In this document: in pieces, positions 2,799 through 37,944 of the stretch
Layout of the letters: each line of letters begins with the position of its first letter
Numbering within the stretch: the stretch's first letter is position 1
Origin: a virus
Length of the DNA: 64,000 nucleotides
IMG/VR virus record: IMGVR_UViG_3300037470_000856
Coordinates: 64,001-128,000 of that record
Direction: 5' to 3' (one strand)
Program-made: the position numbers and the translations under genes
The notes under the pieces: model-generated
The model's database searches: none
Told to the model about the DNA's origin: nothing
Seen by the model: only the letters and a program-made list of their open reading frames with translations

Positions 2799-3152
2799 AT
2801 GTGGTGGGTCTATGTCATCCAGAGCGAGCAGCCGAGATTCACGAAGCGAGGATCGGCGCCCGGGTTCTTCTACGTCGGGTCGACCACCAACCCGGCGCGA
2901 CGCCTGAGGCAGCACAACGGCGAGATCAAGGGCGGAGGTCGCTACACGGCCAAGCACCGACCGTGGGTTCCACGAGCCCTCTACGGCCCCTACGCGGACC
3001 GGAGCGAGGCGTTCAAGGCCGAGATCGCGCTCAAACGAGGCAAGCGGGGAGCGGGTCGCGCGAGATGGTCGTCGAGCGACCACACGCTGTGTCGGGGCGA
3101 CGGGCCCGACCATCCGTGGGTGAAGGACGCTAGCTGGAACCCCGACGCCTAG
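2799..3152 (+). CDS. GIY-YIG nuclease (SLX1/UPF0213-like)
   Basis: WVYVIQS...[27 protein letters not shown]...RPW...AFKAE. The only convincing plus-strand gene. Confidence 0.85.
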
Positions 3153-3541
3153 ACGACCGAGCGTACGTGCTTGATCTTCACGAGGGGGTAGGCTCGCCCT
3201 CGGACAGGCTCGTAGACGACGCCCTCGGACTGTCCTCGATCGACGAGCATCTCTCGACCGTCGGGCGACGCGAGCTCGACGCTGCGGTCGGCCGGGTCGT
3301 AGTCGAACATGACGGCTCGCGTGACGTCCTCGGAGGGACGCCCCCCTCCGGTCTCAAACGAGATGCGCACCGTGTCTCCGGCCTTGAGACCGGTGAGCAG
3401 CACCTCCTGCGACTCGCGGTCGACCGCGAAGTCGCGGATGGGCTTCATGCGCCGCATGGCTCCGAGCAGCTCCTCTCGGAACTCCTCGTTGTCCTTGGCG
3501 AGGCGCAGGATGCTCTTGGTGGTGGGGTCCTTGATGGGCAC
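3149..3541 (-). CDS. Hypothetical protein with the shared N-terminal helical motif ([16 protein letters not shown]) and an SH3-like segment
   Basis: GTG at 3541 preceded by AAGGAG; 130 aa. Confidence 0.75.
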
Positions 3542-3554
3542 GGTAGTCTCCTTG

Positions 3555-6500
3555 TCATCTGGCCGCGTCGAGCAGCGCCTTGCGAAGTTGGGGTCTGGCA
3601 AGCGCGAGGCGCAGCACCCGGGCCGCGGTCTTCTTGGCCTGGATCTTCTCCGCGTACCTCTCGCGCTGCTTCTTGAGGCTCTCTCGACGAGCCAGCAGCG
3701 TCTTGTAGAGCTTGTCCTTCTCGGCGCCCTTCGGGCCCCACTGGTCCACGAGCTTCTTGATCTTGCTCTCGGGGATCTCGAGCACGCGGTCGATGCTGTC
3801 CACGATCTGCTGCGGGGTCGCGTGGTGGAAGACGCTCCCGGACTTGCGGTCGGGATCGGTGAAGGTGTCGAGCTCCGTGACCTCGTCTCCGAACGCGTCG
3901 CCCTTCGGCGCTCCCATCGCGCGGTAGCGGAGGGCGCCCCCGGTGTCCACGCGACGGCCTCGTCCCTCCTCGTCCACGAGCAGGTTGTCGTAGTCGAGAC
4001 CGACCACGTCCCAGTTGCCGAGCCACGCGTCCACGGCGATGCCCTCGAGGACTCCGGGCACGTTGCCCTTGCGGAGGGCGCTCGAGTTCTGCTTGAGCCC
4101 CGGGATGATCTTGCTCGCCACGCTGAACTGGCCGTCGCGCGTGGCCGGAGAGAGATCGGGGACGCCGATGCCGGCGAGCTCGTACAGCTTGCCGGCGAGG
4201 ATCTCGTTGCGGGCACGGTCCTCGGACTTCGGCGTCTTCACGTAGTAGCGGTCGCCGTTCTCGGCCTGGTACAGGCCCCCCGGGTTGCTGCCCGTCTGCG
4301 GCCCCACCTGCTTGAACTCGTCCGAGTCGATGTCGAGCACCTCCTGGGACTTCGGAGCCTCGGTCTTCGCGCCGCCTCCAGTCTCGTCGACCTTGGCCTG
4401 GGTCTTGAGGTCCGAGAGGGCCTTCTGCACCGCCTCCACAAGCTCGGGCTGATCCTCGTACACCTCCCACGCCACTTCCTGGATGTCCGCAACGTCGGAG
4501 CCCGAGAGAGGGGCCCCTTTCTGGACCTTGTCGAGAAGCTCGTGCCAGCCGGACTGCGCCTCCTCGTCCCCCTTGTTCATGTCGAGTTTCACGTCGAGCA
4601 CGTCCACGAGGGTGGACTGCGGGGACTTGGGTTTCGGCTTGGGAGGCACGACCTTGAACCCCTTCCCCCAGTTCCACTCGGCACCCGCGGTGTCCTTGAT
4701 GACCCACTTGCCATCGTCTTCGTCTTGGTACACGTCCGCGACCTCGATCTCGTGTCCCTCGAGGTCGGGGTCCGGCACGACGAGGGTGACGCCGGGCTTC
4801 ACCTTCGGGGGAGGCGGACGATGCCAGTCGTCGGCGCGCTCGACCTTGCGTTCCTTCATCTTCTCCGCGTCGAACGACACGGGCTTGAAGCGGACCTGCT
4901 TGCCCGTCTTGGGGTTGTAGACGAGCGCCTTGAAGTCGTCCTCGTCGGCCGAGACGACCTCCCCGATCATCTCCTTGCCCTTGAACGTGTAGCGAATCTT
5001 GTCGCCGATCTTGAGGTCGGATGGCTTGGTGAGATCAGCCGGCTTCTCAGGCTTCTTCGCCTTCGACTCCGTCTCGTCGGGACCCTTGCTCACGGAGCCG
5101 GGGGCCTCCTGCTGGGCCGTCTCCTGCTGGTACTCGGCGTAGACCTTGGCGGCGAACGCCTTGTCCTTCATGGCCGTCGAGGCCGCGACCTCTGGATACT
5201 TGTCCTTGGTCTTCGGGTTTGGGTTTGGGACCTTCTTCTTGCCGCCCTCGTAGCGCTTGCCGAACCACTCGTCGAAGTCGGCGCCTCCCGACGGCTGCTT
5301 CGGGCTCTCCTGCTGAGCTGGAGACGTGGAGGGGGCGTCGAAGATCGAGACCGCCACGCGCTCGGAGGGCGAGTCGAAGATGGTCGTGGCGCGCTTCGGG
5401 ATCTTCCTGATCTGGGCGAACAGTTCGCGCCGGAACCCAACGTTGACGGAGGCGAAACGCAGGATGCGGACGGCCGCGACGCGGGGCGCCTGCTCCTCGA
5501 TGAGCCAATCCTGTGCGTGGCAGTGCTGTGGCCACCATGTGTCCTTGACCGGCGAGCGCAGCCAGTCATCATCCTCGGGCTCGAACTCGATGACGAGTAC
5601 GTCGTCGTCGAAGACCTCGCCGAACAGCGGGCGCCGCTCGTACGAGGCGAGTTTCATCTTCTCCGAGCTGAAGTCGGACATGGAGTGGGGCATGACCTTG
5701 CCCTCCATGCCGTCCTGGCCGGCCACGACGTACTCATTCTCCGAGTACGGCGGCTTGGCCGAGGAGAGGCTCGCGTAGGTCACCGGAGAGACGAACAGGC
5801 GTGAGACGGGCACCTTGTACCTGACGACGCGCTTTTCTGCGCCCGCGAAGTTGTAGGCCACCTGCGGGTCGATCGAGAAGGACGCGAGTTCCCGCGCCGT
5901 GGTCGTCGTGATCTTCTTGCCCTGCGCGGCACCCTGGACCGGCTTGGTCTTGGTGCCGCGGTAGAGGGTGACGTGGTCGACGCCGAGTGCGTCGTAGACG
6001 AGCTGACTGTACGCCATGGCCTTGGAGATGGCGCGGTGCAGGGCCTCGTTCTTGCGCCCCTCCTCGCGATGGTGCTGGACGTTGGCCGCCTCGAAGTACT
6101 TGGGGCCGCCCTCGACACCGAGGTTCTCAAGGCCACCCATGAGTTTGTGGGCCGTTGTTGCACCGCTCGATCCCTGCCAGGAGGAGAGGGCGCCCTGCCA
6201 CGCCTCCCACTCGTCGTCGGTGAGGAGTTTCTTGAACTCGTCCGCGGCGATGTGCCCGGACTGCGCGAGTTTACGTTCGCCCTCGGTCATGTCGTTCCAC
6301 TGGGTCGCGTTCCCGTGCCAGTAACTCTTGCCCGACGACATGTCTTTCACAATGTCCTTGACCTTGTCGCCGATCAGCTCCTTATACTGCTCGAAGAAAC
6401 GGTCAGCGTCACGAGCGATGGAACTGCCGTGGGCCCACGACGAGGGCGGCGAGAGATGCTGGAGCGCGCCCGTGTGGGTCTCCTCCTTGCCCGCCATCGC

Positions 6501-9239
6501 GGCCTCGTACTCGGCCACGTCCTGGGCGTACTGCTCGTCAATCTCCTTGAGCTTCTTGGTGTACTCCTTGACCTGGGCGTCGTACCCCTTCATCTCCTCC
6601 TTCGTGAGGATTCGGGGCTTGCGCTTGTCGATTTTCGCCTGGTCGAAGGAGGGGGTCTTGAAGGTTTTCTCGCCCGTCGTCTCGTCGTACTTCTCGTACT
6701 TGGCGACGTACGCGGGCGGGTAGATGATGCGGACGCGGAACTTCTCGCCGGGCGTGTCCCAAGACACAACCTCGCCACGGTACGCCGTGCCGTTATGCTC
6801 GTACTCGATGACGTCGCCCTCCTGGACCTGGTCAGGAGACGCGACGAGTTTGCCGCTCGGACGCTCAGGGGGCTCTGGAGCCTTGACCTTCTGCGGCTTG
6901 TCGCCGCGCGAGACCTTGAACTTGCCCTTGGTCTTCTCAAGATTCGACTTAGGGAGGACGACTCCACTCTCGAGACGGATACCGGTGGCCGTGCGGCCTA
7001 CGACGCGCTGCGGGCCGTACTCCTTCGTGTGGACCATGTCGCCCGTCTGGATGGCGTCCCAGTCGACCTCGTGGGTCTCGAGTTTCCATTTCCCCTTGTC
7101 GACCTTCTTGGGCTTCTTGGGCTTCCCCTTGCTCTTGGCCTTGGCGAGTTCCTCTTCCGCGTGGAGTTCCATTATGAGAGAAAACGGGTCGACGGGCTCG
7201 CCCTCCTTCTTGGGCTCCTTCTGAAGGGTCTTGGGGACCTTGGACTTCGGCAGCCTCGAGACCTGCAACTCCTCCTCGAAGGTCTTGGGGGAGACCGTAC
7301 GCGTGTCCTTCACCTGCCCAGTCTTCGGGTTGATGATGTTGTAGACGATCCAGCCGTCGTCGTTCTTGATGACCTGCGCGGTGTAGACCTTGCCGCCGTT
7401 GTACTCGTGGATGCGGAGGACGTCCCACTGCTTGAGTTTATTGGGGTCCGTGACCTCCTTGCCGGTGAGACCCTTCTTGACCTTCATCGGCTTGGTCTTC
7501 GTGGTCTCGACCCCCGTCAGCTTGTCGTCGGCGAGGAACCACGGCTTGCCGATGAACTTAGCGGACTTCGGGCTGTAGTCCTGGAGCATCACGCCAGGAC
7601 CGCGCGGGTCGTCGGGCCCTACCACCTCGATGATCTTGCCAAGGTACTCCTCGTTGAAACCATCGGGGTCCGGGATAAGGATCCAGTCGTCCTTGGAGAG
7701 CTGCGACGACGACTGCACCACGTCGCCGACGTCGGCCTTCTCCTTCTCCTTCTCCTTCTCCTTCTTCTTCTCCTTCGTTTTGGAGAGGCCATCCTCGTCT
7801 ACCCACTTGAGGGACCCGTCGGGCATCTCGATCTGGACCTGCATGAAGCCGCCAGGGTGCTTCTTGGAGGTGATCACCTTGACCTCGACGCCAGTCGGTG
7901 TGTAGACCTTTTCGCCAGTCTCGTAGACTGGCCTGAGTTCCCCCTCCTTGTGGTAAAGGTACGAGTGGGCGCCCGGCAGATCGGGCTTGTCTACGTCGTG
8001 CATGTGCACCCACTCGCCGTTGTCGAGCAGGAACTTGTTGCCATGCTTGCTGTCCTCGACCTTCTTGATCTGGTGCGGCTTGCCCTCCATCCAGACGGTG
8101 TCTCCGGCCGAGACATCCTCGCCTCCGGTAACCTTCCCGCCCTCCGGGACCTGCGACGCAGGGTCCTCAACGACCGTGAAGTGCTGACCCGAGAAGTACG
8201 CCTCCGCCTTCTCCTTGGTGATCTTCTGCGTGCCCTTCCACTTGCCGGTGATGTTGTCGAACTGGCGGTAACGGAAACCCCCGTCCGGCAACATGGAGGT
8301 GATCTTGCCAATGGTGCCCCACGCGTTCCCGAAGAAGATTCCGGGAACGATGTCATCGATGCTGTCGAGTTTCGCCCCGACATCCAGTTTCTTGGGTTTC
8401 GGCTTGGTCTTCTTGACCTTGCCCTCCTCCATCGCAATCTCATCCTCGAAGAAGTAGCCGTCCTCCGCCAAGAGAGCGGGCTTGCCCTTCACCTCGCTGT
8501 ACTTCTCGACGGTGAGAGACTTGTCCTCGTGCCCTATCTCGTAGAACGTGTCTCCGGGCTTGAGCGCGGAGAGAGGGCTTTTCTTCTCGTCATCCTTGTC
8601 CTTCTTCTTGGAAACAAAGAAACTCGACCCGTACCCGATGCCTCCGATCGCGGGACGATCAAAATCAAGCTGGCTGACCCACTCGCCCTCCCCCTCGAAT
8701 TTCACCCGAACCCCGAACTTGTCCGGATCGGGCTCAAACTCCGCGACGACCTTCGGACTTCCGCCGTACCAGACTTGGTCCCCCACTTCGAGGTCCTTGT
8801 TGGTGGACACCTTGGCGCCCTCGGGCAGTTCCGTGATTTTCGGAGGCTCAGGCTCCTCCGCCTCGACGCCCTGCTGCAGCCACGCCTGAAACTCCTTCCT
8901 CACCTTCGCGGCGAAGACATGGTCCTTGAGGGCCGTGCTGAGTTGGACCTCGGGATACTGGTCCTTCGTGTCGGGGTTCGGGTTCTTGACCTTCTTCTTG
9001 CCACCCTCGTAGAACAGCTCGAGGAACTCGACCCACTTTCCGGCGTTGCCGTCGGGAGCGGGCACCTCGGCCGGAGGCGGCTCAGGCGGAGGCGGCTCAG
9101 GCGGCTTCTCCTCCTTCGGAGGCTCAGCCTGCACCGACTCGGGCGAGTCGAAGATGGACAGCGCCACCTTCGAACGCGCCTCGGACTGCTCGGCGATCAA
9201 GTCGACGAAGAAATTTGGCCACTCAAGGTCGGACATCAC
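3555..9239 (-). CDS. Giant multidomain protein: SH3/KOW-like repeats, R-S-E ADP-ribosyltransferase (~5690-6250), PI3/4-kinase/HipA-like kinase (~3660-4320)
   Basis: 1894 aa. ART motifs TLYRG / ASFS / ENEYVV. Kinase motifs GSNPGG...YYVK...NEILA...DAWLGNWD...DN...DTGG. About 11 [L/V]xxGDx[V/I]-like units. Confidence 0.85.
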   Translation of the reverse strand: MMSDLEWPNFFVDLIAEQSEARSKVALSIFDSPESVQAEPPKEEKPPEPPPPEPPPAEVPAPDGNAGKWVEFLELFYEGGKKKVKNPNPDTKDQYPEVQLSTALKDHVFAAKVRKEFQAWLQQGVEAEEPEPPKITELPEGAKVSTNKDLEVGDQVWYGGSPKVVAEFEPDPDKFGVRVKFEGEGEWVSQLDFDRPAIGGIGYGSSFFVSKKKDKDDEKKSPLSALKPGDTFYEIGHEDKSLTVEKYSEVKGKPALLAEDGYFFEDEIAMEEGKVKKTKPKPKKLDVGAKLDSIDDIVPGIFFGNAWGTIGKITSMLPDGGFRYRQFDNITGKWKGTQKITKEKAEAYFSGQHFTVVEDPASQVPEGGKVTGGEDVSAGDTVWMEGKPHQIKKVEDSKHGNKFLLDNGEWVHMHDVDKPDLPGAHSYLYHKEGELRPVYETGEKVYTPTGVEVKVITSKKHPGGFMQVQIEMPDGSLKWVDEDGLSKTKEKKKEKEKEKEKADVGDVVQSSSQLSKDDWILIPDPDGFNEEYLGKIIEVVGPDDPRGPGVMLQDYSPKSAKFIGKPWFLADDKLTGVETTKTKPMKVKKGLTGKEVTDPNKLKQWDVLRIHEYNGGKVYTAQVIKNDDGWIVYNIINPKTGQVKDTRTVSPKTFEEELQVSRLPKSKVPKTLQKEPKKEGEPVDPFSLIMELHAEEELAKAKSKGKPKKPKKVDKGKWKLETHEVDWDAIQTGDMVHTKEYGPQRVVGRTATGIRLESGVVLPKSNLEKTKGKFKVSRGDKPQKVKAPEPPERPSGKLVASPDQVQEGDVIEYEHNGTAYRGEVVSWDTPGEKFRVRIIYPPAYVAKYEKYDETTGEKTFKTPSFDQAKIDKRKPRILTKEEMKGYDAQVKEYTKKLKEIDEQYAQDVAEYEAAMAGKEETHTGALQHLSPPSSWAHGSSIARDADRFFEQYKELIGDKVKDIVKDMSSGKSYWHGNATQWNDMTEGERKLAQSGHIAADEFKKLLTDDEWEAWQGALSSWQGSSGATTAHKLMGGLENLGVEGGPKYFEAANVQHHREEGRKNEALHRAISKAMAYSQLVYDALGVDHVTLYRGTKTKPVQGAAQGKKITTTTARELASFSIDPQVAYNFAGAEKRVVRYKVPVSRLFVSPVTYASLSSAKPPYSENEYVVAGQDGMEGKVMPHSMSDFSSEKMKLASYERRPLFGEVFDDDVLVIEFEPEDDDWLRSPVKDTWWPQHCHAQDWLIEEQAPRVAAVRILRFASVNVGFRRELFAQIRKIPKRATTIFDSPSERVAVSIFDAPSTSPAQQESPKQPSGGADFDEWFGKRYEGGKKKVPNPNPKTKDKYPEVAASTAMKDKAFAAKVYAEYQQETAQQEAPGSVSKGPDETESKAKKPEKPADLTKPSDLKIGDKIRYTFKGKEMIGEVVSADEDDFKALVYNPKTGKQVRFKPVSFDAEKMKERKVERADDWHRPPPPKVKPGVTLVVPDPDLEGHEIEVADVYQDEDDGKWVIKDTAGAEWNWGKGFKVVPPKPKPKSPQSTLVDVLDVKLDMNKGDEEAQSGWHELLDKVQKGAPLSGSDVADIQEVAWEVYEDQPELVEAVQKALSDLKTQAKVDETGGGAKTEAPKSQEVLDIDSDEFKQVGPQTGSNPGGLYQAENGDRYYVKTPKSEDRARNEILAGKLYELAGIGVPDLSPATRDGQFSVASKIIPGLKQNSSALRKGNVPGVLEGIAVDAWLGNWDVVGLDYDNLLVDEEGRGRRVDTGGALRYRAMGAPKGDAFGDEVTELDTFTDPDRKSGSVFHHATPQQIVDSIDRVLEIPESKIKKLVDQWGPKGAEKDKLYKTLLARRESLKKQRERYAEKIQAKKTAARVLRLALARPQLRKALLDAAR

Positions 9240-10678
9240 TGTCTCTCTCCGGTCAGGACCCGTCGGAGGGCTCGTCGGAAGTCAGGGTCCTGGAAGGCGC
9301 GATGTCGGAGCGCGGGCACGAGAGGACTTCCTGCGACCTTCTTCTTGCCGGATGAGCGCCACCTCTCTCGCGCCTCGACGAGATTGTCAAACTCCTCCTC
9401 GGTGATCGGGACGGCCCGCTCGGCGAACCAAGCGAGGCTGTCCACGGGGGCGACGAGGTCGCCCCCGTGGATGACCGGCATCTTGGGCTGCACCCACTTC
9501 ACCGGAAGTCCATCGACGTCGAAGTAGAACCCGCTCTCCTCCGCCCGCTTGGACACCGGGGTCTTGCGCTTGCGCCTGGGGATCTTGGGAAGCAGGAGGG
9601 ACTTGGGCGCATCGAAAATGCTCGAGGGCTCAGATTTCGAGGCAGACTCCTGCCACGCGCGCTCGTAGACCTCACGCTGGCGAGAGGTGAGCGTATGGAA
9701 CCGCTCCATCACGTCCTCGGGGATCTCCTCTCTCCTCTTGTCGCGGACCTTGTCGTCGAGCCCCTTGATCTGGGAGTACAGCGCGTGGTTCTGCTCCTTC
9801 GCCTGGAGCATGGGCTTGAGGTGAAGTTGCAGCTCCATAACGTGCCCGTTGGGCAACCTCGCGTTCAGCACGACGTCCCGGTACCCGGCGGCCGTGGCGG
9901 TCCGAAAGCGATTCCGAGGGCGAGAGACGAGTTCTATGCCGCTCTTCTTGAGCTTGTCGATGACCCCTCGGAGGTCCTCGTACTTATCGACGGCGATCGA
10001 CGCCCGCACGAGGTCGACCGCCCCCTCGGACCAGTTCCCTCCGTAGCGCTCTCGAACCTTGTCCTCCGCGGCCTCGCGCTTCTTCGTCGACCCAATCACC
10101 ACGACGGGGCCCGGGGTCGAGTAGTCGATTTCGCCGTCAGGGTCCTCGTCTCGACGGACGACCTCAGCTCCAAGGGCCTTGTCGATCCCCTCACCGCGAT
10201 CGAGCCAGTCGAGCATCTGATCGTGCCCCTCCTCGGCCTGGGCGAAGAGACGGTCCGGGACGGAGTGCGACTGCAAGGCCCACCTGGGGAGTTTCTCGAT
10301 CTCCGCCTCGGAGAACAGGGCCTTCGGCTTGAACTGACGTCTGTGCTCGCCCGGAGGTGCCCACATGCCGCGCCCCCACATCCTCTGCGTCCTGCGTCCC
10401 TTTTGGCGCTTGAGATTCTCGATGAGAAGTTTCCTCTGCTCCGATTTCTGCGGCGCTCCTGGATCGCGCCCGAACACGTAAGCCTCCCACTGCTCGCGGG
10501 GCAGTGGTGTGCCGTTCTCGTCTTTCTTGCGCTGGACGTAGTCCTCGTACTTGGCGTCGGCCGTGAGGACCCGGGCCAGAGATTCACGAAACGCAGGATC
10601 GCTCGCAGCGCGGTGCCGCAGCGCGCGCACGAGGTTCTGGTCAGAAGCGGATCGAAAGTGGGCCATGCGGGCGTTCAC
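9236..10678 (-). CDS. RelA/SpoT-like nucleotidyltransferase domain protein
   Basis: KKREAAEDK, DLVRASI, GYRDVVLN, MELQLH and HALY match RelA_SpoT synthetase-like motifs. Flanked by repeated helical motifs. Confidence 0.75.
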   Translation of the reverse strand: MNARMAHFRSASDQNLVRALRHRAASDPAFRESLARVLTADAKYEDYVQRKKDENGTPLPREQWEAYVFGRDPGAPQKSEQRKLLIENLKRQKGRRTQRMWGRGMWAPPGEHRRQFKPKALFSEAEIEKLPRWALQSHSVPDRLFAQAEEGHDQMLDWLDRGEGIDKALGAEVVRRDEDPDGEIDYSTPGPVVVIGSTKKREAAEDKVRERYGGNWSEGAVDLVRASIAVDKYEDLRGVIDKLKKSGIELVSRPRNRFRTATAAGYRDVVLNARLPNGHVMELQLHLKPMLQAKEQNHALYSQIKGLDDKVRDKRREEIPEDVMERFHTLTSRQREVYERAWQESASKSEPSSIFDAPKSLLLPKIPRRKRKTPVSKRAEESGFYFDVDGLPVKWVQPKMPVIHGGDLVAPVDSLAWFAERAVPITEEEFDNLVEARERWRSSGKKKVAGSPLVPALRHRAFQDPDFRRALRRVLTGERQ

Positions 10679-10689
10679 CTACGGCGACC

Positions 10690-10705
10690 CGATAGAACGA
10701 AAATC
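10690..10705 (-). promoter_or_regulatory. Putative phage late promoter (copy 5)
   Basis: Minus strand GATTTTCGTTCTATCG, just upstream of the RelA/SpoT-ART/kinase operon. Confidence 0.55.
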
Positions 10706-10797
10706 AGGTCTTGAACGTGAGGAGCGGCCACCACTTCACGACAGGCTCGAGAAGCCTTTCCTTGCGCAGGGTGATGCACTCGACGCCTACCGCCCGG

Positions 10798-11136
10798 TCA
10801 TTCCTCGGGCTCCATCATGACCTGGAGCGGGTGCTCGTACTTCTGCGCGTAGGCCATCGAGAGCACCACCTTGGTCTCGGCGATCTCGTGGGTGTAGACC
10901 CCGACCACCGCCGATCCCGCCTGGTGGACCTTGAGCGTGATCTGAGCCGCCTCCTCCGGAGTTTTACGAAACACCGTGGCAACGAGCTGCACGACGAAGT
11001 CGATGGGCGTGAAGTCGTCGTTAAGGATGATGACGCGATACTTCCGGGGGCGCTGAGTGTGCTGCTCCTTGCGCTCCTTGCGCTCCTTGAGACCGACGCC
11101 TTCTCGGCGTTCCTCCTGGCGGTCCTTCTCCGGCAT
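10798..11136 (-). CDS. clpS: ATP-dependent Clp protease adaptor ClpS
   Basis: YRVIILNDDFTPIDFVV...VHQAGSAVVGVYTHEIAETKV...HPL is the ClpS signature. Confidence 0.95.
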   Translation of the reverse strand: MPEKDRQEERREGVGLKERKERKEQHTQRPRKYRVIILNDDFTPIDFVVQLVATVFRKTPEEAAQITLKVHQAGSAVVGVYTHEIAETKVVLSMAYAQKYEHPLQVMMEPEE

Positions 11137-11172
11137 GACCCCCTCTTATACCCCGGAGTGAATAGGGAGACG

Positions 11173-11397: not shown

Positions 11398-11414
11398 GCG
11401 ACACTGTACCATCG

Positions 11415-11558: not shown

Positions 11559-11628
11559 TTCGCTCTGAAACGCGACCTACCTCTACGATAGGGGCCTCAT
11601 CGAAGGAAGGGACTCGACGCGCGGGAAC

Positions 11629-19895: not shown

Positions 19896-19911
19896 TGTCT
19901 CTTCTCCTTTC

Positions 19912-27541: not shown

Positions 27542-27557
27542 CTATAAGGCGAAAAAC
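27542..27557 (-). promoter_or_regulatory. Putative phage late promoter (copy 4)
   Basis: Minus strand GTTTTTCGCCTTATAG; 14 nt identical to the copy at 49695. Confidence 0.6.
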
Positions 27558-27768: not shown

Positions 27769-27781
27769 ATGTTTTCGACCT

Positions 27782-30700: not shown

Positions 30701-33700
30701 CTCTCGGCGCTTGCGCTGCACGTAGGCGTCGTAGGTCGGAGCGGCGAGCCTCGCGTTCGGGCGCGGCCGGTACTGCTCCTCGGGCGAATTGTCGACGTGC
30801 CGGCACATGTCGCAGCGTGTCCCGCACCGCCAGTACTCCTCGGAGTCAAAGGGGTAGCCGTCGTCGAGACCGTAGTGGTCGAGCAGCACGTTGAGGCAGC
30901 GCTCGCAGCTCTTCGCGGCGACCATGATGGCGTCGCCGACGTCCCACTGTCCGCTGCGCACCATGGTGTTGACGAGGTCGGTCGGGTACGACGACTCGCC
31001 CGCGCCTACGTCGGTGCTCGTGCCATCCTCGTTCAGACGTAGGATGCTGTGGTGCAAGACGTGGGGGAACTGGCTGTGCATGTACTCGGCGCCCTCGGGG
31101 GGCTGCCACGTCTCGTACTCGCCGAGGTCGCCGCCGCCGAGGCGGTTGCCATGGGCGTCCTCGTACCAGAGGATCGTGAAAATCTGGGGGTCGAACTCAA
31201 GCCCCTCGACGTGAGGGCGCGGACGCTCGTGCTCTCGGGCGATCCGGTAGACGGCCGGCGCGTTGCGGAGCCACCACCGACGGTCTCGGGACACGAGGAC
31301 CGGGGCAACCCCGGCGTGCGCCAAAATGAGGCGCTCGGTGTCGGTGCCGAGGAGCGCCGCCGTGCGCATGATTTTGGGGTCCGACGCCTTCCTCGTGTGG
31401 CTCTCGTTGACGGTGCCGTCCTTCATGTAGCCGTCCTCCAAACCCGGCACGAGGTACTGGCTGCGAAGGGTCGAAGGATCGTGCCCCACGGCCTCCGCCG
31501 TCGCTTCGAGGGCCTTCTTGAACTCGTCCTTGAGTTTCTTCTCGCGCTCCTTTCTGTCCTCGGGGAGTTTGCCCTTACGGACCTTGCGGAGTTGCGCCTT
31601 CATCTCGCGGTTGGCGTGGAACCCACGGAGGTCCTTCGCGGTGATGTCAAGCGGCTCGAGGTACTCGTTGACCTCCTGCGCCGAGACGCTCAGGACGCAG
31701 TCGTTGGGCTTCTTGCCCTTGCACGCCTCCTTGAGCGCCGAGACAACTCGCGGGTTACTGATCTTCTTCTTCTGCTCGACGCCCGACTTGCCGACGTAGG
31801 AGACCGTGACGGAGCCCCGGCCGAGGGTGATGTGCTTGACGCGCCAGGTTGTGACGCCGAAATGGCCCTCCTTGGCGCTGTCGTCGTTCCCGACGCGCTC
31901 AAACGTCTCGTCCATGAGGCCCACGGCCAACGCGAGATCGCGGGTCTTTTCGTCCTTCGACTTCACGTCCTTGCGGACCTTGGTCTGGAGTTTCTTCATC
32001 TGGCGTCGCAGCTTCTCGACGCGCTCCGCCTTCTTGCGGTTGCGGTCGGCCACCTGACGGTCGCTGTACTCGTAGACCGTCATCTCGTCCCCGTCCTTGG
32101 TCTTGACCTTCTTCTTAGACTTGTAGCGGACGGCGATGGCGGAGCACGTCGCCATCTTGCCCAGGTCAGGCTCGCGGGCCTCCATCTTGTCGCGGTAGCG
32201 GAACACGCGGACGGGGATCTTAGGCTCGCGATCATCGGGCAGCAGGTTGCGACGCCGCACCACCTCCGCGTGCTCAGGGACGAGGTACAGGAACAGCGCG
32301 GGGTGCGTGGTGTCGATGGTGAGCTGGCTCGTCGTCCGCATCTTGTCGGTGACGCGAACCGGGTTGAAGGGGCTGTCGGCGTCGTGAATCGCCTTGACGA
32401 GGGCCACCGCGGCGGCCTCGGGGCGTCGCACGTCCTGAAGGCGCTTCTGGGCCTCCCACCGGCGCACGATCGAGCTGACGTAGTCGTCGCCGTGCGTGTA
32501 GCCGGCGTCCGGGTAATTCACACCGTGGTTCGTCCGCGTGTTGACGCGGTCCGAATCGAGCTCAGTGACATGCGCAGGGTGATTCTTGCTGCACTCGATG
32601 CTGAACAGCTTGTTGCCGTCCGCCACAAACGTGTGTCCCCGGATGCCGCCGTTGTCGGTGCGCAGGGATCCCACGGCGTCGTCGATGTTGTCAAACGCGA
32701 GCGCGCGGTAGATCTTGGGGCCGTCCTTGGAGGTCAAGGGCCTCTTGCCCTTGCCCTTCCCCGGCGACTTTTTCTTGCCCTCGGCCTCGTCGCGTACGAC
32801 CATGAGGGTGGTGTTGACGGCCGCGATGCCGTGCTCGTTGACCCCCTCGAGGTAGCCGGTGACCGTGTCGAGGACGACGGCCATCTCGGTGCCGTCCTTC
32901 TCGATGTGCACGATCTCGAGCTTCGCGTCGTAGGCTCGGTCGCGGTTCTTGAGCAGGCACAGGCTGTCGCCGAAACGGCGCCCCGCGATGATGCACGCCT
33001 CCCTCAGCATGGCGGTCTTCTTGACGGACCTTCCCGAGTCGAGCACGACGATCTCGGACGTGTACGGCTTGCCTCGCACCTCGGTCACCGTGACGACCCC
33101 GTCGTAGCCGTCCTTCTGGAGCGCCTTGGTCAGCGCCTGCCCGCGCTTGCGGTACCGTCGCTCGAGCTGCGCCTTCCACGAGTTGTCGTCGTAAATCAGC
33201 CCGTCGGGGTCGGTGTTGACGGCGAGCACGAGAGGGTTGTCGAGTTTCACGGTGCCCGTGACGTATCCGGGCAGCGGGTCGTCGTCGTCGTCGTCGGTAG
33301 TTTTGTGCGTGACGTAGAACCCCGCGGGCTCGATCTTCTGCTGGTACGGGTCCGACCCCTTCGGGGCCCGCGGTGCCTTCTCGGTGTTGCGCAGGAACTC
33401 AAACTCGACCGGCGTGCCCGTCTCGAACTTGCGACCGCGCTCCTCGACGGTGCGGAGGGGCATCTCGTCGGACCTCCGCGAACTACTCCAGCGCTCGTAG
33501 ACCTTCCGCTGTTCGGCGTCCGGCAGCGAGTCGAAGACGACGTCGTTGCCCGTGTCGGGGTTGCGGAAACGCTGCCCCTTCACCAAGTCGAGAAACTCCC
33601 TGGAGTACGCAGCCTGCTTGCGCCGGTCGGCTCGCCAGATCTTGTAGAGACCGATGACGCGGTTCTTCTTGCGGCCCTTGGGGATCGGCTCGATCTCCAC

Positions 33701-33841
33701 GGACGGCACCCCGCGATCGTCGTCGAACAGGCGCACGACCCGGCCGCGCTTGTTCTTGCCGAACAGCACCTCGTCGCCGACCTTGAAGTCGTCCTGCGCT
33801 GCCAGGTGGCGCATGGCCACGCGTGCGACGAGAGCACTCAC
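27782..33841 (-). CDS. Giant multidomain protein: KOW, ART-like, Ntn-hydrolase (C45-like), DNA topoisomerase IB, GNAT, coiled coil
   Basis: Likely start GTG at 33841 (GTGA overlap), 2019 aa. TopoIB motifs RVGN, GKSG, KDLR, GH, QYL. Ntn motifs CIIAG...KNRD...EGVNEHG. GNAT motifs RRGSG...WYRGMGF. ART-like motifs GFY...NPL...GYDGV...EIVV. Confidence 0.85.
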   Translation of the reverse strand: MSALVARVAMRHLAAQDDFKVGDEVLFGKNKRGRVVRLFDDDRGVPSVEIEPIPKGRKKNRVIGLYKIWRADRRKQAAYSREFLDLVKGQRFRNPDTGNDVVFDSLPDAEQRKVYERWSSSRRSDEMPLRTVEERGRKFETGTPVEFEFLRNTEKAPRAPKGSDPYQQKIEPAGFYVTHKTTDDDDDDPLPGYVTGTVKLDNPLVLAVNTDPDGLIYDDNSWKAQLERRYRKRGQALTKALQKDGYDGVVTVTEVRGKPYTSEIVVLDSGRSVKKTAMLREACIIAGRRFGDSLCLLKNRDRAYDAKLEIVHIEKDGTEMAVVLDTVTGYLEGVNEHGIAAVNTTLMVVRDEAEGKKKSPGKGKGKRPLTSKDGPKIYRALAFDNIDDAVGSLRTDNGGIRGHTFVADGNKLFSIECSKNHPAHVTELDSDRVNTRTNHGVNYPDAGYTHGDDYVSSIVRRWEAQKRLQDVRRPEAAAVALVKAIHDADSPFNPVRVTDKMRTTSQLTIDTTHPALFLYLVPEHAEVVRRRNLLPDDREPKIPVRVFRYRDKMEAREPDLGKMATCSAIAVRYKSKKKVKTKDGDEMTVYEYSDRQVADRNRKKAERVEKLRRQMKKLQTKVRKDVKSKDEKTRDLALAVGLMDETFERVGNDDSAKEGHFGVTTWRVKHITLGRGSVTVSYVGKSGVEQKKKISNPRVVSALKEACKGKKPNDCVLSVSAQEVNEYLEPLDITAKDLRGFHANREMKAQLRKVRKGKLPEDRKEREKKLKDEFKKALEATAEAVGHDPSTLRSQYLVPGLEDGYMKDGTVNESHTRKASDPKIMRTAALLGTDTERLILAHAGVAPVLVSRDRRWWLRNAPAVYRIAREHERPRPHVEGLEFDPQIFTILWYEDAHGNRLGGGDLGEYETWQPPEGAEYMHSQFPHVLHHSILRLNEDGTSTDVGAGESSYPTDLVNTMVRSGQWDVGDAIMVAAKSCERCLNVLLDHYGLDDGYPFDSEEYWRCGTRCDMCRHVDNSPEEQYRPRPNARLAAPTYDAYVQRKRREGGPALSREEWEARVMGVDDEDAPEREPPSREEWDALRKSMIERHSLTDSHAAYRPQHRHMSVDLIRVNEDRRGSGSASRAMEETLDWVDSNGVTVTFTPTSEFGSSKKHLEKWYRGMGFVPNKGPNKGRNKDFRFQDAMIRTPQAKTATKSPAEKEDEAVEKMLRTEPKKKPPRYDLRDNRTLDEEDPDLDGMGGGDKGDPDLSMKWNKVARRVALRHVMAEAPVQPKSGLSFEEWVKNQKFKHPETGNDVGFTSLPPDEQTKIREKWRGQQQPEEEGTDKGKKTEEDKERTTEDVHVELEQARDEMRDIEAQMGDLTDEIKDLKSKINQQRDEYLPHMGEGPGRQQLLDSMQKMQREMGRKQDELDDKKEEHADAKARVDELRRERKDPGFAKEKREEKLRQERAKKVERAVERAQTNMEEMLGKETRLPPDLATQIGGALNDLDEAQVESFSIDFQDTLKNLKQMDPSSEEAVDVASRAAKFGDLHGLTDPKELAERLAQLSYAERIVGNPMNIGGTPVGVTEMDSEKYSERAQAAFKQFERLPSSLRRRAADQVARALKGLDPETNRAQELNAILTGMNIAQVAVTGESLPGRPQPSKGMAALVKQMVVDGKGSELFRTTEDYFAEQARRKMQEGLDDMNFEQLGDLTTGGDEEHGYADLVDLMKNDGTPDVLRAMMKDFLVQDILNDQWGDRAVRDTMQAAGIADADDPEARAEVLGEATSRMKPRMEKVLEAQERIAEAQRNGEQPSAEDLEMVEGTFDPKKGTGLREKAKAILNTIRDKFDKVVISPASAVLNHFVQTGEREVLEQETLPHPDEKAKEPRSREEHEKAETSDRETPESADSEEVKDDEEHGPGDVWGTEQGNWRAKNEDGVPKSFKKRDEAERYADKGGDEDEKKPARGGEAPGEEFSAEFGDFEERGPTRFAVERVAQVWLERGRHGRMAGDWLAHVRSFHPDDPLRPVVVLDVA

Positions 33842-36800
33842 CGGCGCAGCTCCTCGATCACCCGGTCGGTCAAGTGTTGTCCCTTGACCGCGAGCTTGGG
33901 GTCCTGGAGGATGATGTGACGAGCCGTCGGCACGATGTGACGACGGTCGGGCCCGGGCAGCTTGAGGACGTCGATGATGCGGGGGTTGTCCACGGGCGGC
34001 TTGATGAGTTTCTCGACGAGCGCGACAGCGTCCTTCTCGGGCATCGAGACGGTCAGGGCTCGCAGGCGGTCGCGTCCCGACGGATCGAGGAAGGAGATCG
34101 GCGTGGAGGCGGGCACGCCCAGCTCGAGCAGGTCGAGCAAGAACTGCACCTTTCGGTTGCGCCGGAGCTGGTTCGCCATGTACGCGGCGAAGGGCTTCTG
34201 CTCCTGGATCATCTCGGACACCACGTCGAGCAGCCCGAGCATCTTCATCTCCTTGAGGGAGCGCCGGGCGGTCGGCTGGTTGAGGACGTCGTTGACGAGG
34301 ATGGACGCGACGGCCTCCCATGGCATGCGCTTGAGCTTGGGCGCGTTCTTGCGGATCGACCGGATCACGTCGGGAGGGATCTTGAACCCGTACTTGCCCG
34401 TGAACTTGATAGCCCGGAGCATGCGCGTGGGGTCGTCGGAAAACACCCGGTCGGGCTCCTGCGGGCACTTGATGACGCGGCGCTTGAGGTCGGCTCGGCC
34501 GCACCCCGTCAGGTCGATGATCTCCGCCTTGTCGGGCCCGTGCGCCAGGTCGAGCATGCGCCACAGCAGCGTGTTGTGGACTACCACCCCGTTTGCAACG
34601 AAGGCCGGCTCGATCCCGTCACCCATCGAGATGTCGAATACGTCTTGGTCTCCGGCGTCCTCAACCGAGACGACCTCAACGTACTGGTATCCCAGTTCAA
34701 ACAACCGTTGGAGTTTGACATGTTCACTTGCGCTGATAGCCATGAGGCTCGCCAGGAACTCCCCGAAATCACCGCGAACGTAAGCGTCGTGCAGAAGTCG
34801 TTTCGGACGGCGGAGCGCCTCCAAAATACCGCTTTCGGCGACCTCACCACCCTCGTCCGTTCGGTACATCGAAGGTCCTTGGTTGTTTCCGACCCGTGTC
34901 CTGCGTCCCTTCAAAAACCCTTGGAGGTGTTCTTTCGGGACCCCATACCGGTTCCGGCTCTTGCAGGTCTGCTGCGCGTAGTCGAACCCCTTGGTCACCA
35001 TCCACGGCTGGATCTTTTCCCACAGGAGGGCCGAGTCCACGGCATTGAGGTAGACGAACCTGTCCTTCACCTTGCTCAGGACGCCGTGAGCACCGAGGAG
35101 CGCCTGCAACTGCTGTCGGACATGAGGCGACGCCGAGCAGAAGGTGATACGACCCGTGTCAAGTCGAATGGAGCCGTCACCCTCGAGGTAGGCGGCCAAG
35201 AAGGCCCACTGACTCCGCTCGTCGGCTTGGAGGATGGACCAAGGCACCACCTTGTGGTGAGAAGGAGACTTTCCATCCCGCGCACCTCCGCAGTACAGGC
35301 CCAGTTCATCCAGCCACCCCACAACTGCCTTGCTGTCGGCGTAGATGTCGTAGCCGTCTGAGTTCGCGACGAACTCGACGCCCCGCAAGACCCTCACCGA
35401 GCCCTTCTCGATCACCTTGTTCTGCAAAGGTTGGAACCCGAACACAGTGTTGAAACACTCGACGTAGCGGGAAATGAGAGCCCGATCCGAGTTGCTGAAT
35501 GACACCCGCTTGTGTGTGTTCGATCCCTCAGCCACCACGCACCCGATCACGAACGCCAGCTCGGGCGTCATCGCTTCGGGTTTGTGCGCCGCCTTGAGAG
35601 TGCCGCGCTTCGGCTGTGCGGGGTCTTTCAACTCCAAAGTCAGCGGCTCCTGCCTCGTCACCTGCCGCACGGGAACGCAGAGAAGGTCGCCCTCTTCAAG
35701 TTGATCGGCCTGCACCCAAACGTGGTTGTGCCCTCGGAGGACCAAGACTGGATGGTGGTGCGTGCAGGAGAAGGAGTGGCCCCACTCGGTCGTCACCCGA
35801 AGCGTAGGGGCACAGCCGCTGTACTGCCACCCCACAGCCACCGCGGGACCGTCTTTCCCCGCCACGGTCAAATTGAGATCCTGATGGTCTCCCTTCTCTC
35901 GAGAGGCGATCTGGTCGATGCGAAGGATGCCCCTCTCCGTAGGAATGAGGGTGTCTCCGGCCATGCAGTTGAAGGTGAACTCCCGGCGCAGGACGTCCTC
36001 CTCGATCGTCGCGGGGGCGACCGAGTGGGGCTTGTACCCCTTGCCGCCGCTGCCCCCGTAGCTCTCCTTGCGGGCGTTGGCGATCTCGAGCACCTCGCCG
36101 TCGAGATCCTCGCCGCCCACGATCCACGGCCCCTTCACGGTCAGGATGGCGACGCCGTACTGGTTCGTCGTTACGTTGGTCGGCGCCGGGATGTTCCGGG
36201 CGATCTGCTTGGCGAGCCAGTCGGAGTCGCGGCCGGCCTTGGTCATGTCGATGACGATGTCGATGTCCTTGATCGGCTGGTTGATCAGAAAGTTGCGCAC
36301 AGCCCCGCCCACGACGTAGGTGTCCCGGCCCACCCCGAGGCGACGGGTGAGATCGGACAGCCACTTCATCAGGGCCACGTTTTTGCGATGGACGGAGCCT
36401 TCCACGGTCAAGGATGCTACCCGACGCCGGATCCACGTCGAGGCGACCTTCGCCGCGGAGGGCCCCATCTTGAGCTTGTGGACCTCGGGGAGCCCCCAAA
36501 CCTCCATCTCGTCGAAGGCCCATGATCCCTCGGGCACGGGGCCGTCCCACTCGGCGTCCATGCCGGGCATGTAGGCGAGGGTGACGTGGGGCTTGTACTC
36601 GGGGAAGCTGTCCCCGACCTCAATGCCCGCGTCGTGGAGCTCCTGCTTGACGCGGTGCTTGAAGCCCGACAGATCCTTGTCGAACTCGACGGCGACGTGC
36701 GGGACGCGGCGATCCTTGTCGTGGTGATCGAAGTACTCGAGTCCGTTGAGCCGCGCCTCGCACTTGGGCCACCACTTGCGGCAGCACTCGCGGAGCACCT

Positions 36801-37944
36801 CGACGAGCTTCTCCTGCTGCTTCTCGCCCTTGAAGTCGCCGATGTAGAGGAACGTGACGTGGCTCGGAGAGTCGTCGTTCTCGCCCAGGCTCGGAAACTT
36901 CTTCGCCAGGTCCTTGGGCAGCGGGATGAACATGCCGACGGACTCGCCGTCCCCGGTCTTGCTTCCCGTGGCCTTGGCTGTCTTGCCCTTGGGGTACTCG
37001 CCGTACTTCTCGCCCACGACGCCGTCGGGCACCCTGCGCTCGCGCACGATGTCCTTCGGCATCTCGGACTTCTCGTTCTTCCAGGCCTCGAAATGCTTCT
37101 CGCAGAACCAGGCGCGCCCGCGACCGTCTGCCCAGATGCCCTCGCGCTCGGGCGGCTTCTCGCATCCGGCGTGCATGCACTTCGACATGCTGTGACGGCT
37201 GGCGGCGTATCTCCAGAGCTGCGCCACCCGGATCGCGGTTTTCCGGCTGCCTCCGCGCCACTCCGCGAACTCCTTCTGCACCTGGGCGCGGAAGTGCGGA
37301 CTCGTTTTGAGCAGCGTGGAGGCAGCTACCTCGGGGTAGCGCTTCCGCGTCTGCGGATTGGTGTTCAGGACCTTCTTCTTGCCACCGTCGTAGCGTTCCG
37401 CGAGGAACTGCTCCCACTCGGCGCTGGTGGGCTTGCCAGGGTCCTTGGGAGGCTCCTTCTTGGGAGGCTCCTTCTTGGGCTCGGGCTTTTTCTTCGGCTG
37501 CTCCTCGGAGGCCGGCCCCACACGCTCTCCGTGGAGCGCGTTCTTGCCTCGGCCCAACTGGCTCGACGGGCGGTCCACGAGGGCGAACAGGCGTCCTCGA
37601 TCCACAAATCTCAGACCGTGCTTCGGGGCCACGTCCGAGAATTCCATGAGGGGGCCCGAGAACAGGGAGGAGCCGTCGGGCTTCTTGATGTGCACCTCGG
37701 TGTTCGTCACCTTGTCGGCCCACGCCTTGGCCTCGTCCTCCGTCTTGAACCCTTGCAAGACGGCGCCGCCCCTCTGCTGGTGCGCGATCGCCTTGTGCCG
37801 GTCCACCACGCGGACGGGGCCCGAGGGCCACTGGTTCGGGTTCACGTCGGCGACGACGGCGTAGTTGGCCTTCGCCTTCGCCACCCGCACGCGCAGCCAA
37901 GAGTTTGCGGCTTTCGTGAAGTTCTGAATTGCGGAACGCGGCAC
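33838..37944 (-). CDS. Multidomain protein: repeat module + 2H phosphoesterase + class II CCA/poly(A)-type nucleotidyltransferase with intein
   Basis: HVTF and HVTL (two HxT motifs); VVGGAVRN...DIDI, EDVLRREFTFN, DDPTRMLRAIKF. Confidence 0.9.
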   Translation of the reverse strand: MPRSAIQNFTKAANSWLRVRVAKAKANYAVVADVNPNQWPSGPVRVVDRHKAIAHQQRGGAVLQGFKTEDEAKAWADKVTNTEVHIKKPDGSSLFSGPLMEFSDVAPKHGLRFVDRGRLFALVDRPSSQLGRGKNALHGERVGPASEEQPKKKPEPKKEPPKKEPPKDPGKPTSAEWEQFLAERYDGGKKKVLNTNPQTRKRYPEVAASTLLKTSPHFRAQVQKEFAEWRGGSRKTAIRVAQLWRYAASRHSMSKCMHAGCEKPPEREGIWADGRGRAWFCEKHFEAWKNEKSEMPKDIVRERRVPDGVVGEKYGEYPKGKTAKATGSKTGDGESVGMFIPLPKDLAKKFPSLGENDDSPSHVTFLYIGDFKGEKQQEKLVEVLRECCRKWWPKCEARLNGLEYFDHHDKDRRVPHVAVEFDKDLSGFKHRVKQELHDAGIEVGDSFPEYKPHVTLAYMPGMDAEWDGPVPEGSWAFDEMEVWGLPEVHKLKMGPSAAKVASTWIRRRVASLTVEGSVHRKNVALMKWLSDLTRRLGVGRDTYVVGGAVRNFLINQPIKDIDIVIDMTKAGRDSDWLAKQIARNIPAPTNVTTNQYGVAILTVKGPWIVGGEDLDGEVLEIANARKESYGGSGGKGYKPHSVAPATIEEDVLRREFTFNCMAGDTLIPTERGILRIDQIASREKGDHQDLNLTVAGKDGPAVAVGWQYSGCAPTLRVTTEWGHSFSCTHHHPVLVLRGHNHVWVQADQLEEGDLLCVPVRQVTRQEPLTLELKDPAQPKRGTLKAAHKPEAMTPELAFVIGCVVAEGSNTHKRVSFSNSDRALISRYVECFNTVFGFQPLQNKVIEKGSVRVLRGVEFVANSDGYDIYADSKAVVGWLDELGLYCGGARDGKSPSHHKVVPWSILQADERSQWAFLAAYLEGDGSIRLDTGRITFCSASPHVRQQLQALLGAHGVLSKVKDRFVYLNAVDSALLWEKIQPWMVTKGFDYAQQTCKSRNRYGVPKEHLQGFLKGRRTRVGNNQGPSMYRTDEGGEVAESGILEALRRPKRLLHDAYVRGDFGEFLASLMAISASEHVKLQRLFELGYQYVEVVSVEDAGDQDVFDISMGDGIEPAFVANGVVVHNTLLWRMLDLAHGPDKAEIIDLTGCGRADLKRRVIKCPQEPDRVFSDDPTRMLRAIKFTGKYGFKIPPDVIRSIRKNAPKLKRMPWEAVASILVNDVLNQPTARRSLKEMKMLGLLDVVSEMIQEQKPFAAYMANQLRRNRKVQFLLDLLELGVPASTPISFLDPSGRDRLRALTVSMPEKDAVALVEKLIKPPVDNPRIIDVLKLPGPDRRHIVPTARHIILQDPKLAVKGQHLTDRVIEELRR
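34573..35967 (-). mobile_element. Intein with LAGLIDADG endonuclease in the CCA-type nucleotidyltransferase (465 aa)
   Basis: Begins CMAGDTLI, has CTHHHP and VIGCVVAEG / FLAAYLEGDG, ends VVHN followed by Thr. Confidence 0.95.

Follow-up and report, generated by a model that had tools for sequence, protein, structure and literature searches.

Giant multi-enzyme proteins built from shared peptide modules in the head module of a phage G-lineage huge phage, candidates for cargo of the capsid

We analysed a stretch of 64,000 nucleotides (nt; the window hereafter) from the IMG/VR virus record IMGVR_UViG_3300037470_000856, comprising bases 64001-128000 of a 141-kb viral contig of ~65% G+C, for which an earlier note had proposed a set of giant multi-enzyme proteins, linked by common peptide modules, packaged in the capsid and cut there into an injected enzyme cocktail. 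CheckV estimates the contig to be ~31% of a complete genome. The minus strand holds nearly all genes of the window, among them the four giant open reading frames (ORFs) that the note had described, which encode proteins of 1894, 480, 2019 and 1368 amino acids (aa), named here A1894, B480, C2019 and D1368. They lie in two operons, ordered B480, A1894 and a small gene in operon 1 and D1368, C2019 in operon 2. Both gene pairs share a 4-nt GTGA overlap (stop TGA, start GTG; 9236-9239 and 33838-33841), which suggests translational coupling within each operon. The layout of the products is given below in residue numbers; M1 to M4 are short modules, and RVA tags and M4 helices are leader-type peptides, all described further on.

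9236..10678, minus strand: B480, with an M4 leader helix-hairpin (aa 16-41), M3 (44-78), a RelA/SpoT-like nucleotidyltransferase (NTase) lead (~115-350), a SIFDAP motif (359-366) and a second M4 at the C-terminus (453-478).
3555..9239, minus strand: A1894, with a SIFDSP motif, M1 (66-121), SH3-like repeats (four clear copies between 141 and 1463), a probable DRAT-like ADP-ribosyltransferase (ART; ~960-1230), two SIFD motifs (1283-1300), a second M1 (1319-1373), a kinase-like domain (lead; 1640-1867) and an M4-like C-terminal helix.
3149..3541, minus strand: small gene of ~130 aa following A1894 in operon 1, with an M4-like leader and a small beta domain.
33838..37944, minus strand: D1368, with an N-terminal leader, M1 (175-229), an RVA tag (239), a Zn-ribbon-like stretch, a 2H phosphoesterase (~340-495) with two HxT motifs, an RVA tag (499), and a CCA-type NTase (540-672 and 1125-1368) with a LAGLIDADG intein (~673-1124) between its halves.
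27782..33841, minus strand: C2019, with an RVA leader at 7, an SH3-like domain, M2 (78-122), a polyvalent-associated domain without assigned fold (125-285), a cysteine N-terminal nucleophile (Cys-Ntn) hydrolase (284-560), a type IB topoisomerase (TopoIB; 569-822), an unassigned region, M3 (1037-1072), a probable GNAT domain (1086-1203), a KTATKS/KKPPR linker, an RVA tag (1260), a second M2 (1274-1318), a conserved helical region (1380-1900) and a conserved C-terminal tail (1971-2019).

PHROG and Pfam scans of the window identified the genes that surround operon 2:

41277-44564: large terminase, intein-bearing (PHROG/Pfam).
38524..40506, minus strand: portal gene, upstream neighbour of the D1368/C2019 operon.
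22246..25293, minus strand: prohead protease gene with an inserted intein (extein aa 1-209 and 712-1015).
20758-22218: acidic scaffold-like protein.
19020-20066: ORF of the major capsid protein, or 19020..19898 (minus strand) if translation starts at Met57, probably the true start.

Identity of the capsid protein is 89% with its counterpart in the uncultured 485-kb phage LR745208, 48% with that of Tunturiibacter phage Tunturi_5 and 38% with that of Bacillus phage G. On sequence grounds, these identities and the head genes identified make the window the head module of a phage G-lineage huge phage, with the D1368/C2019 pair placed between portal and prohead protease and operon 1 downstream of the capsid gene. 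Relatives were portal-anchored IMG/VR loci, labelled G001-G005, plus LR745208 from GenBank; three to four of the metagenomic relatives, on independent huge-phage contigs, encode orthologs of the giants.

Fragment BLAST comparisons recovered the short modules that the note had seen shared among the giants, with E values (1e-8 to 1e-20) well beyond chance. M1 (YEGGKKKVxNPNPxTKxxYPEV) is present twice in A1894 and once in D1368; M2 (FxNPxTGNxVxFxSLPxxEQ) occurs twice in C2019 and again at the N-terminus of a 1222-aa protein encoded just beyond the window; B480 and C2019 each contain one M3, and M4 (LVxALRHRAxxDPxFRxxLxRVL) is found at both termini of B480. SIFD[SA]P appears four times across A1894 and B480, and a six-frame scan of the contig with [IVL]FD[SA]P gave a single additional match, VFDAP in another protein. 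A relationship between M1 and M2 as variants of one module was rejected (hhalign probability 0.9%).

Profile searches of 5.8 billion proteins detected M1 in 77 and M2 in 61 metagenomic proteins, together ~135 carriers, with lengths of 94-1994 aa. The modules are joined in them to CCA NTase, DRAT-like ART, PI3/PI4-kinase-like, HAD_SAK_1, DUF3293, beta-solenoid transferase and TopoIB domains. Their position is preferentially N-terminal: among single-copy carriers, 51 of 68 for M1 and 37 of 45 for M2 have the module beginning in their first 110 residues, and the first copy is N-terminal in 20 of the 22 multi-copy proteins, whose copies are spaced by a median of 213 residues. Directly upstream of the modules, two types of leader, [RK][VIM]Axx[WYHF] and the helix-Pro-helix M4 type, are enriched ~8-fold, each being found at 12% of module copies against a background of 1.3-1.5%. 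Within the contig, the RVA-type tag sits at N-termini, C-termini and domain joints, and occurs 18 times in 87 genes (5.2 ± 2.5 expected), a figure that is indicative only because the pattern was chosen after the data were seen. The model of M2 consists of a helix, a beta-hairpin and a second helix. No fold could be assigned to leader plus M2, since the best Foldseek match (E 0.9) and the best VIA match (Z 4.0) were not significant, and the unit heads formed by leaders and M1/M2/M3 had no match in the family libraries searched (Pfam, PHROGs).

The 1222-aa protein (genome positions 59045-62713; L005:11045-14713, minus strand) lies outside the window and combines an M2 at 9-52 with an RVA-type tag at its extreme C-terminus. 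Its gene is part of a syntenic, unannotated block between the putative cargo operon and the tail genes, orthologs of 1063-1313 aa are found in many contigs, and PHROG annotation of the surrounding genes was uninformative.

Each of the larger chains carries enzymes of different kinds. At least two unrelated catalytic domains occur in C2019 (TopoIB, Ntn hydrolase and GNAT) and in D1368 (2H and CCA NTase), and A1894 pairs the probable DRAT-like ART with the kinase-like lead. The list of activities in the note could thus be divided by strength: TopoIB, the 2H phosphoesterase, the intein-split CCA NTase and the Cys-Ntn hydrolase were confirmed, the DRAT-like ART and the GNAT are probable, the kinase-like and RelA/SpoT-like domains stand as leads only, and a second ART matched no family. 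The TopoIB of C2019 matches Pfam Topoisom_I with an E value of 1.6e-27, and its catalytic R-K-R-H-Y residues align to those of variola TopoIB 2h7f (FERVGN, VGKSG, DLRGF, GHDPS, SQY). In D1368, the 2H domain contains HVT twice and scores 32.1 bits with 2_5_RNA_ligase2 (cut-off 27) and 28.9 bits with AKAP7_NLS; the CCA-type NTase scores 49 bits with PolyA_pol, its RNA-binding part being below threshold, and its G001 ortholog, which lacks the intein, is 79-86% identical across the aligned blocks.

Identification of the Cys-Ntn hydrolase drew on both profiles and structure prediction. The G001 ortholog of C2019 matches Pfam AAT (25.2 bits, cut-off 23.2), and in an AlphaFold model of C2019 284-560 (predicted template modelling score, pTM, 0.70; mean predicted local distance difference test, pLDDT, 61.6) the first beta-strand begins at the invariant Cys284. 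Foldseek returned 66 PDB matches for this model at E<=1e-3, the best being 4wl2 (E 1e-7); among those listed, every match with a named function is a Cys-Ntn enzyme (penicillin V acylase, bile salt hydrolase, isopenicillin N acyltransferase, acid ceramidase, NAAA). Weakly modelled parts keep the template modelling (TM) scores against these matches low (0.35-0.5). We regard the assignment of residues 284-560 to the Cys-Ntn hydrolases as confirmed by the profile match and the predicted fold.

The remaining domains were assigned with less strength. Residues ~960-1230 of A1894 score 19.4 bits with the DRAT family, under its cut-off of 25, and the homologs P0069 and P0010 exceed this cut-off over the aligned region, making a DRAT-like ART probable. 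Similarly, C2019 1086-1203 is probably a GNAT: four GNAT families matched below threshold, phrog_10691 matched with E 3.4e-15, and tblastn matches are annotated as DarB-like. For A1894 1640-1867 we obtained HipA_2 at E 0.18, scores from the protein language model ESM of 0.90-0.93 to HipA_2, PI3_PI4_kinase and actin-fragmin kinase clusters (ESM-Atlas), and invariant columns GSNxG, YxK, NWD..N and DxGG, and no Pfam or PDB match at accepted thresholds, so that kinase-like is a lead only. At E<=1e-3 its family counts 4759 cluster representatives; among the 150 top-ranked, the majority are 700 to 7000 aa long. The RelA/SpoT-like region of B480 (~115-350) is likewise a lead, given by an ESM feature score of 0.95 to clusters with 17-34% RelA_SpoT members and by a model TM of 0.58-0.66; B480 had no RelA_SpoT match in Pfam, and GrpB was found at E 0.02. 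No family matched C2019 125-285, claimed as the second ART, and homologs of this domain occur in proteins bearing ART-PolyVal elsewhere in the chain. Sequence searches of the PDB (single-sequence and profile) with A1894, B480, the Ntn domain and the kinase-like domain yielded nothing useful.

The common element that the note had placed ahead of both operons and of the head and terminase operons was recovered as the 14-nt pattern TTTTCGNNYTATMG, with five copies in the 141-kb contig and ~0 in shuffled sequences; the looser TTTTCGNNNTAT gives 0.24 in shuffles. Every copy of TTTTCGNNYTATMG is on the coding strand, in the short gap before a gene:

10690..10703, minus strand: TTTTCGTTCTATCG, before the B480/A1894/small-gene operon; an identical copy precedes the G001 ortholog (L031:1368).
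37971..37984, minus strand: TTTTCGGTCTATCG, before D1368 and C2019; in G001, G002 and G005 it is kept directly behind the portal gene.
27542..27555, minus strand: TTTTCGCCTTATAG, before the head operon, which extends from the 171-aa gene to the protease, scaffold and capsid protein genes; a relaxed copy has the same place in G001.
49695..49708, minus strand: TTTTCGCCTTATAG, ahead of the operon containing the terminase and portal genes; retained in L009 and L010.
Outside the window: fifth copy of TTTTCGNNYTATMG, before a tail-module gene.

The element is absent from the more distant G003, G004 and LR745208. Judged from its placement, it is most simply a promoter of structural-gene operons and not specific to the cargo genes; we infer its activity and timing, the operons that follow it being probably expressed late.

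Comparison with the relatives showed that the same units are fused in some phages and separate in others. Large multi-domain proteins occupy the slot after the portal in four relatives (G001, G002, G003, G005); G004 has several smaller genes there, and LR745208 only a 508-aa protein (L007:29202-30728) in which a HAD-type phosphatase (DxDGT) is fused to TopoIB and which ends in the same linker (KxATKxPAE...KPPRxDLR) and a VASRW tag. G001 encodes a 707-aa protein with 2H and CCA domains and without M1. The G002 2H protein stands alone (212 aa), starts with QRVAKATGTKAG and finishes in an RVA-type tag, the same peptides that flank the 2H domain within D1368; the C2019 ortholog of this phage lacks both the 125-285 domain and the GNAT. 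In G004 the 2H is also alone, and the conserved C-terminal region of C2019 is a separate 751-aa gene. This region had no homolog in the examined loci of phage G, Tunturi_5 and LR745208; C2019 orthologs all keep a near-identical extreme C-terminus, SFHPDDPxRPxVVLDAA. Peptide patterns in IMG/VR retrieved no close relatives of A1894 and B480, which were found instead by searching the records of the relatives: the B480 ortholog in G001 is 50% identical, and the domain of the small gene (3149-3541) is fused in G001 onto the C-terminus of a 1248-aa paralog. Since units are separate or differently fused in relatives, and gene ends there match module borders, the giants look like fusions of individually tagged units. 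This agrees with the proposal that they are multi-enzyme proteins composed of units with shared peptide modules and encoded inside the head module.

The G001 ortholog of C2019 reaches 3125 aa; M2 is duplicated in it, with an A1894-type ART between the copies, and TopoIB is preceded by a DUF5661 module. In the window this module forms the C-terminal ~45 aa of a 379-aa protein of the terminase operon (48647-49786); the G001 copy (L029, within 4378-13755) spans aa 1159-1201, just before the TopoIB. From these occurrences, DUF5661 is another portable piece.

The note had read [K/R]-x-A as a cleavage code at domain borders, which did not hold: the four proteins contain 68 such motifs and shuffled versions 73.2 ± 7.7, so the motif is not enriched. 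It occurs every ~85 residues, and therefore any domain border has a nearby site by chance. Of the 26 sites in C2019, all four orthologs keep only 5, most of them within folded domains. Some peptides at the joints of C2019 are conserved, such as KTATKS behind the GNAT and KWNKVxxRVAxR in front of the second M2. The prohead protease might make further cuts, a possibility that found no support.

A different cleavage is predicted from the chemistry of the Cys-Ntn enzymes, and it is the only one with a mechanistic basis:

32990..32995, minus strand: codons of Ala283-Cys284, predicted self-cleavage site ahead of the Ntn nucleophile.

Hydrolases of the Cys-Ntn class require a free N-terminal cysteine, which isopenicillin N acyltransferase, acid ceramidase and NAAA generate through autoproteolysis. 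In C2019, Cys284 is preceded by 283 residues that comprise the small beta domain, M2 and the 125-285 domain, and the Ala283-Cys284 pair is invariant in five orthologs. By analogy, the embedded hydrolase implies one self-cleavage. The fold and the cysteine that opens the first strand are those of the self-processing Cys-Ntn hydrolases, from which C2019 differs in that the precursor segment is 283 residues long and has its own domains; self-cleavage would therefore also split the polyprotein.

With moderate confidence, we propose that the two operons, probably late, encode polyvalent cargo proteins made of leader-tagged units, which would be taken into the capsid and reach the host cell together with the DNA. 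Each unit consists of a short amphipathic leader helix ([RK]VAxx[WYHF] or the helix-Pro-helix M4 type), followed by M1, M2 or M3 and by a payload enzyme, the payloads being TopoIB, the Cys-Ntn hydrolase, the CCA-adding enzyme, the 2H phosphoesterase and the probable or candidate GNAT, DRAT-like ART, kinase-like and RelA/SpoT-like domains. The proteins would be made late, alongside the head proteins, and loaded into the prohead through their leaders and modules or through the conserved C-terminal region of C2019, which would cut itself before Cys284 and thereby activate the Ntn hydrolase. Entering the host with the DNA, they might act in takeover, counter-defence and tRNA repair.

Evidence for packaging is indirect, and consists of the slot between portal and protease, conserved in the relatives examined, the shared element, links to polyvalent domains and a homologous domain in a protein annotated as particle-associated. 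Homologs of C2019 125-285 co-occur with DarA_C, ddrB-ParB, LPD38 and ART-PolyVal, Pfam families that derive from polyvalent proteins, two of them being named after the head-packaged Dar proteins of P1. The kinase-like domain of A1894 is 44% identical over 231 aligned positions (E 5e-43) to one in gp129 of Yersinia phage fHe-Yen8-01, a protein of 2146 aa that is annotated as 'ADP-ribosyltransferase toxin', also has an ADP-ribosyltransferase domain and whose GenBank record bears the note 'phage particle associated protein'. In poxviruses, a TopoIB is packaged in the virion. Because so many non-structural proteins are listed in the particle proteome of phage G (PMC12484599), we did not count it as evidence.

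Several observations, in addition to the chance frequency of [K/R]-x-A, weigh against packaging. None of the MuF, MPTase (Zn-peptidase) or LPD families of Pfam was detected in the four proteins, phage G has no such giants in its post-portal slot, and the M2 fold gave no functional hint. A search of 50,697 GenBank phage records found neither M1 nor M2, so that published virion proteomes do not extend to them. RNA-repair enzymes (CCA NTase, HAD_SAK), which could work in the cytoplasm, are frequent fusion partners of M1. The note had also suggested a test of whether, in related phages, the modules are attached to variable enzyme domains near head genes; attachment to variable enzymes was borne out, and confinement near head genes was not, because M1- or M2-bearing genes are scattered genome-wide, without the promoter-like element, in the near-complete G002 and G005. 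The modules are therefore not restricted to head-module genes.

These last observations also favour a reading in which the giants are late or constitutive cytoplasmic proteins, never packaged, whose modules and leaders bind a common partner (nucleic acid, ribosome or replication compartment) and so gather RNA-repair, DNA-topology and host-modifying enzymes at one place in the infected cell. Recurrence of M1 on CCA-adding enzymes, HAD_SAK RNA-repair phosphatases and 2H-containing proteins, the dispersal of module genes in G002 and G005 and the lack of a hallmark capsid anchor such as MuF in the four proteins all fit it. However, it leaves aside the position between portal and protease, conserved across the lineage, the element common to head and terminase operons, and the particle annotation of a homologous giant with kinase-like and ART domains; moreover, by the argument made for T4 Alt (PMC5512222), a host-modifying enzyme such as an ART, kinase-like domain or GNAT that is produced late would serve little purpose unless it travelled on to the next host cell. 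We consider this reading rather unlikely, and still the most serious of the alternatives.

Association with the particle could alternatively be external, the proteins being on or attached to neck, fibres or head surface, with the modules as docking pieces for accessory domains. M2 heads the conserved 1222-aa protein in the syntenic block between the putative cargo operon and the tail genes, and the SH3-like repeats and long helical region resemble structural or fibre-like proteins, with a weak PHROG match to tape measure proteins. This is nevertheless improbable, as TopoIB, CCA-adding, 2H, RelA/SpoT-like and kinase-like activities need cytoplasmic substrates and Pfam and PHROG scans found no receptor-binding or depolymerase domains. 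It is more improbable still that the short helical tags serve turnover control and not packaging, through recognition by an unfoldase or protease, for example a phage ClpX: phage G does encode ClpX and ClpP (PMC12484599), but no ClpX zinc finger exceeded the curated cut-off in the contig or in three relatives (at least 90% complete, estimated), and the tags sit at internal junctions as well as at termini.

The packaging reading resembles known systems in part, and the idea of a packaged multi-enzyme protein is not new. Polyvalent proteins, predicted to be packaged in the capsid, delivered and processed by embedded peptidases, were already described by Iyer et al. in 2017 (PMC5512222), a point repeated in a 2021 survey of jumbo phages. 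Like them, the window proteins combine several unrelated enzyme domains per chain, including an ART and a GNAT (both probable here), are encoded beside virion genes of a portal-terminase phage, and contain, in C2019 125-285, a domain found elsewhere with DarA_C, ddrB-ParB, LPD38 and ART-PolyVal. They differ in having no MuF, Zn-peptidase (MPTase) or Pfam LPD domain and in their repeated heads of leader and M1/M2/M3, their set of TopoIB, Cys-Ntn, 2H and intein-split CCA NTase, and their phage of the phage G lineage. The P1 Dar system (DarA, DarB, DdrA, DdrB) also consists of large multi-domain counter-defence proteins packaged in the head; the GNAT region of C2019 resembles proteins annotated as DarB-like, and the 125-285 domain co-occurs elsewhere with DarA_C and ddrB-ParB, whereas the window proteins lack DarA, DarB and DdrB domains, and the capsid lineage and the addressing pieces are different. 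The giant gp129 of fHe-Yen8-01 shares the combination of the same kinase-like domain and an ART, but belongs to a 92-kb Enterobacteria phage, is without M1/M2 and has an ART of the exoenzyme family, not DRAT-like.

In T4, internal proteins and Alt bear a capsid targeting sequence that is cut by the prohead protease gp21, and ejection proteins of phiKZ and SPN3US have N-terminal propeptides cut by gp175 or gp245 (20-254 residues in SPN3US, cut at A-x-E; PMC10052503). These phages are the experimental precedents for head cargo that is addressed and processed: enzymes and other proteins are produced late and sent to the prohead by N-terminal sequences. The window proteins also share N-terminal leaders and modules, whose addressing role is putative, and the SPN3US propeptides are close in size to leader plus module. 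Differences are that no cleavage motif is established here, [K/R]-x-A being at chance, and that the modules of the window phage recur internally, so that whole units are chained. New in our analysis, as far as the sequences indicate, are the defined unit heads, with two leader types and M1/M2/M3, unmatched in the searched libraries; their spread across ~135 metagenomic proteins; the series of fused and split forms among relatives; the embedded, predicted self-processing hydrolase; and the set of enzymes.

The neighbourhood of the giant genes is dense in selfish elements, with inteins in the large terminase (41277-44564), the prohead protease (22246-25293) and the CCA-type NTase (33838-37944), and a fusion of LAGLIDADG homing endonuclease and DNA methyltransferase directly downstream of the capsid gene (16385-18901). 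The portal gene of G005 has an apparent insert (1149 aa versus 660 aa). A run of DKKD repeats (~26030-26100, minus strand) lies inside the coding sequence of a 315-aa protein of the head operon (25951-26898), upstream of a 242-aa gene. The first gene of that operon encodes a 171-aa protein (26920-27435) with two paralogs in LR745208 (L007 26417-27082 and 28541-29176); the three have a common motif, K[VI]A[MK]DFAxRCD[LI]LSD, compatible with the RVA-tag pattern. The 171-aa product may be a scaffold-type protein, or the RVA-like motif may be coincidental.

A wider proposal, which we put forward tentatively and regard as doubtful, is that leader plus M1/M2/M3 forms a portable capsid-address code across a large clade of uncultured huge phages, the giants being fusions of addressed units that self-cleaving domains or the prohead protease would separate again once inside the head. 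If so, any enzyme that gains a unit head would be loaded into the prohead, a general and programmable form of loading unlike the T4 capsid targeting sequence or MuF anchors. If the packaging proposal is true, huge phages of the phage G lineage would bring a ready-made enzyme kit into the cell, consisting of a DNA topoisomerase, protein-modifying enzymes, a possible alarmone-type enzyme and a tRNA-repair pair, and the 2017 prediction on polyvalent proteins would be extended to megaphages. The embedded Ntn hydrolase offers a simple bench handle on whether the giants are true polyproteins, and M1, M2 and the two leader types would be concrete address pieces, and potential tags for loading foreign proteins into capsids.

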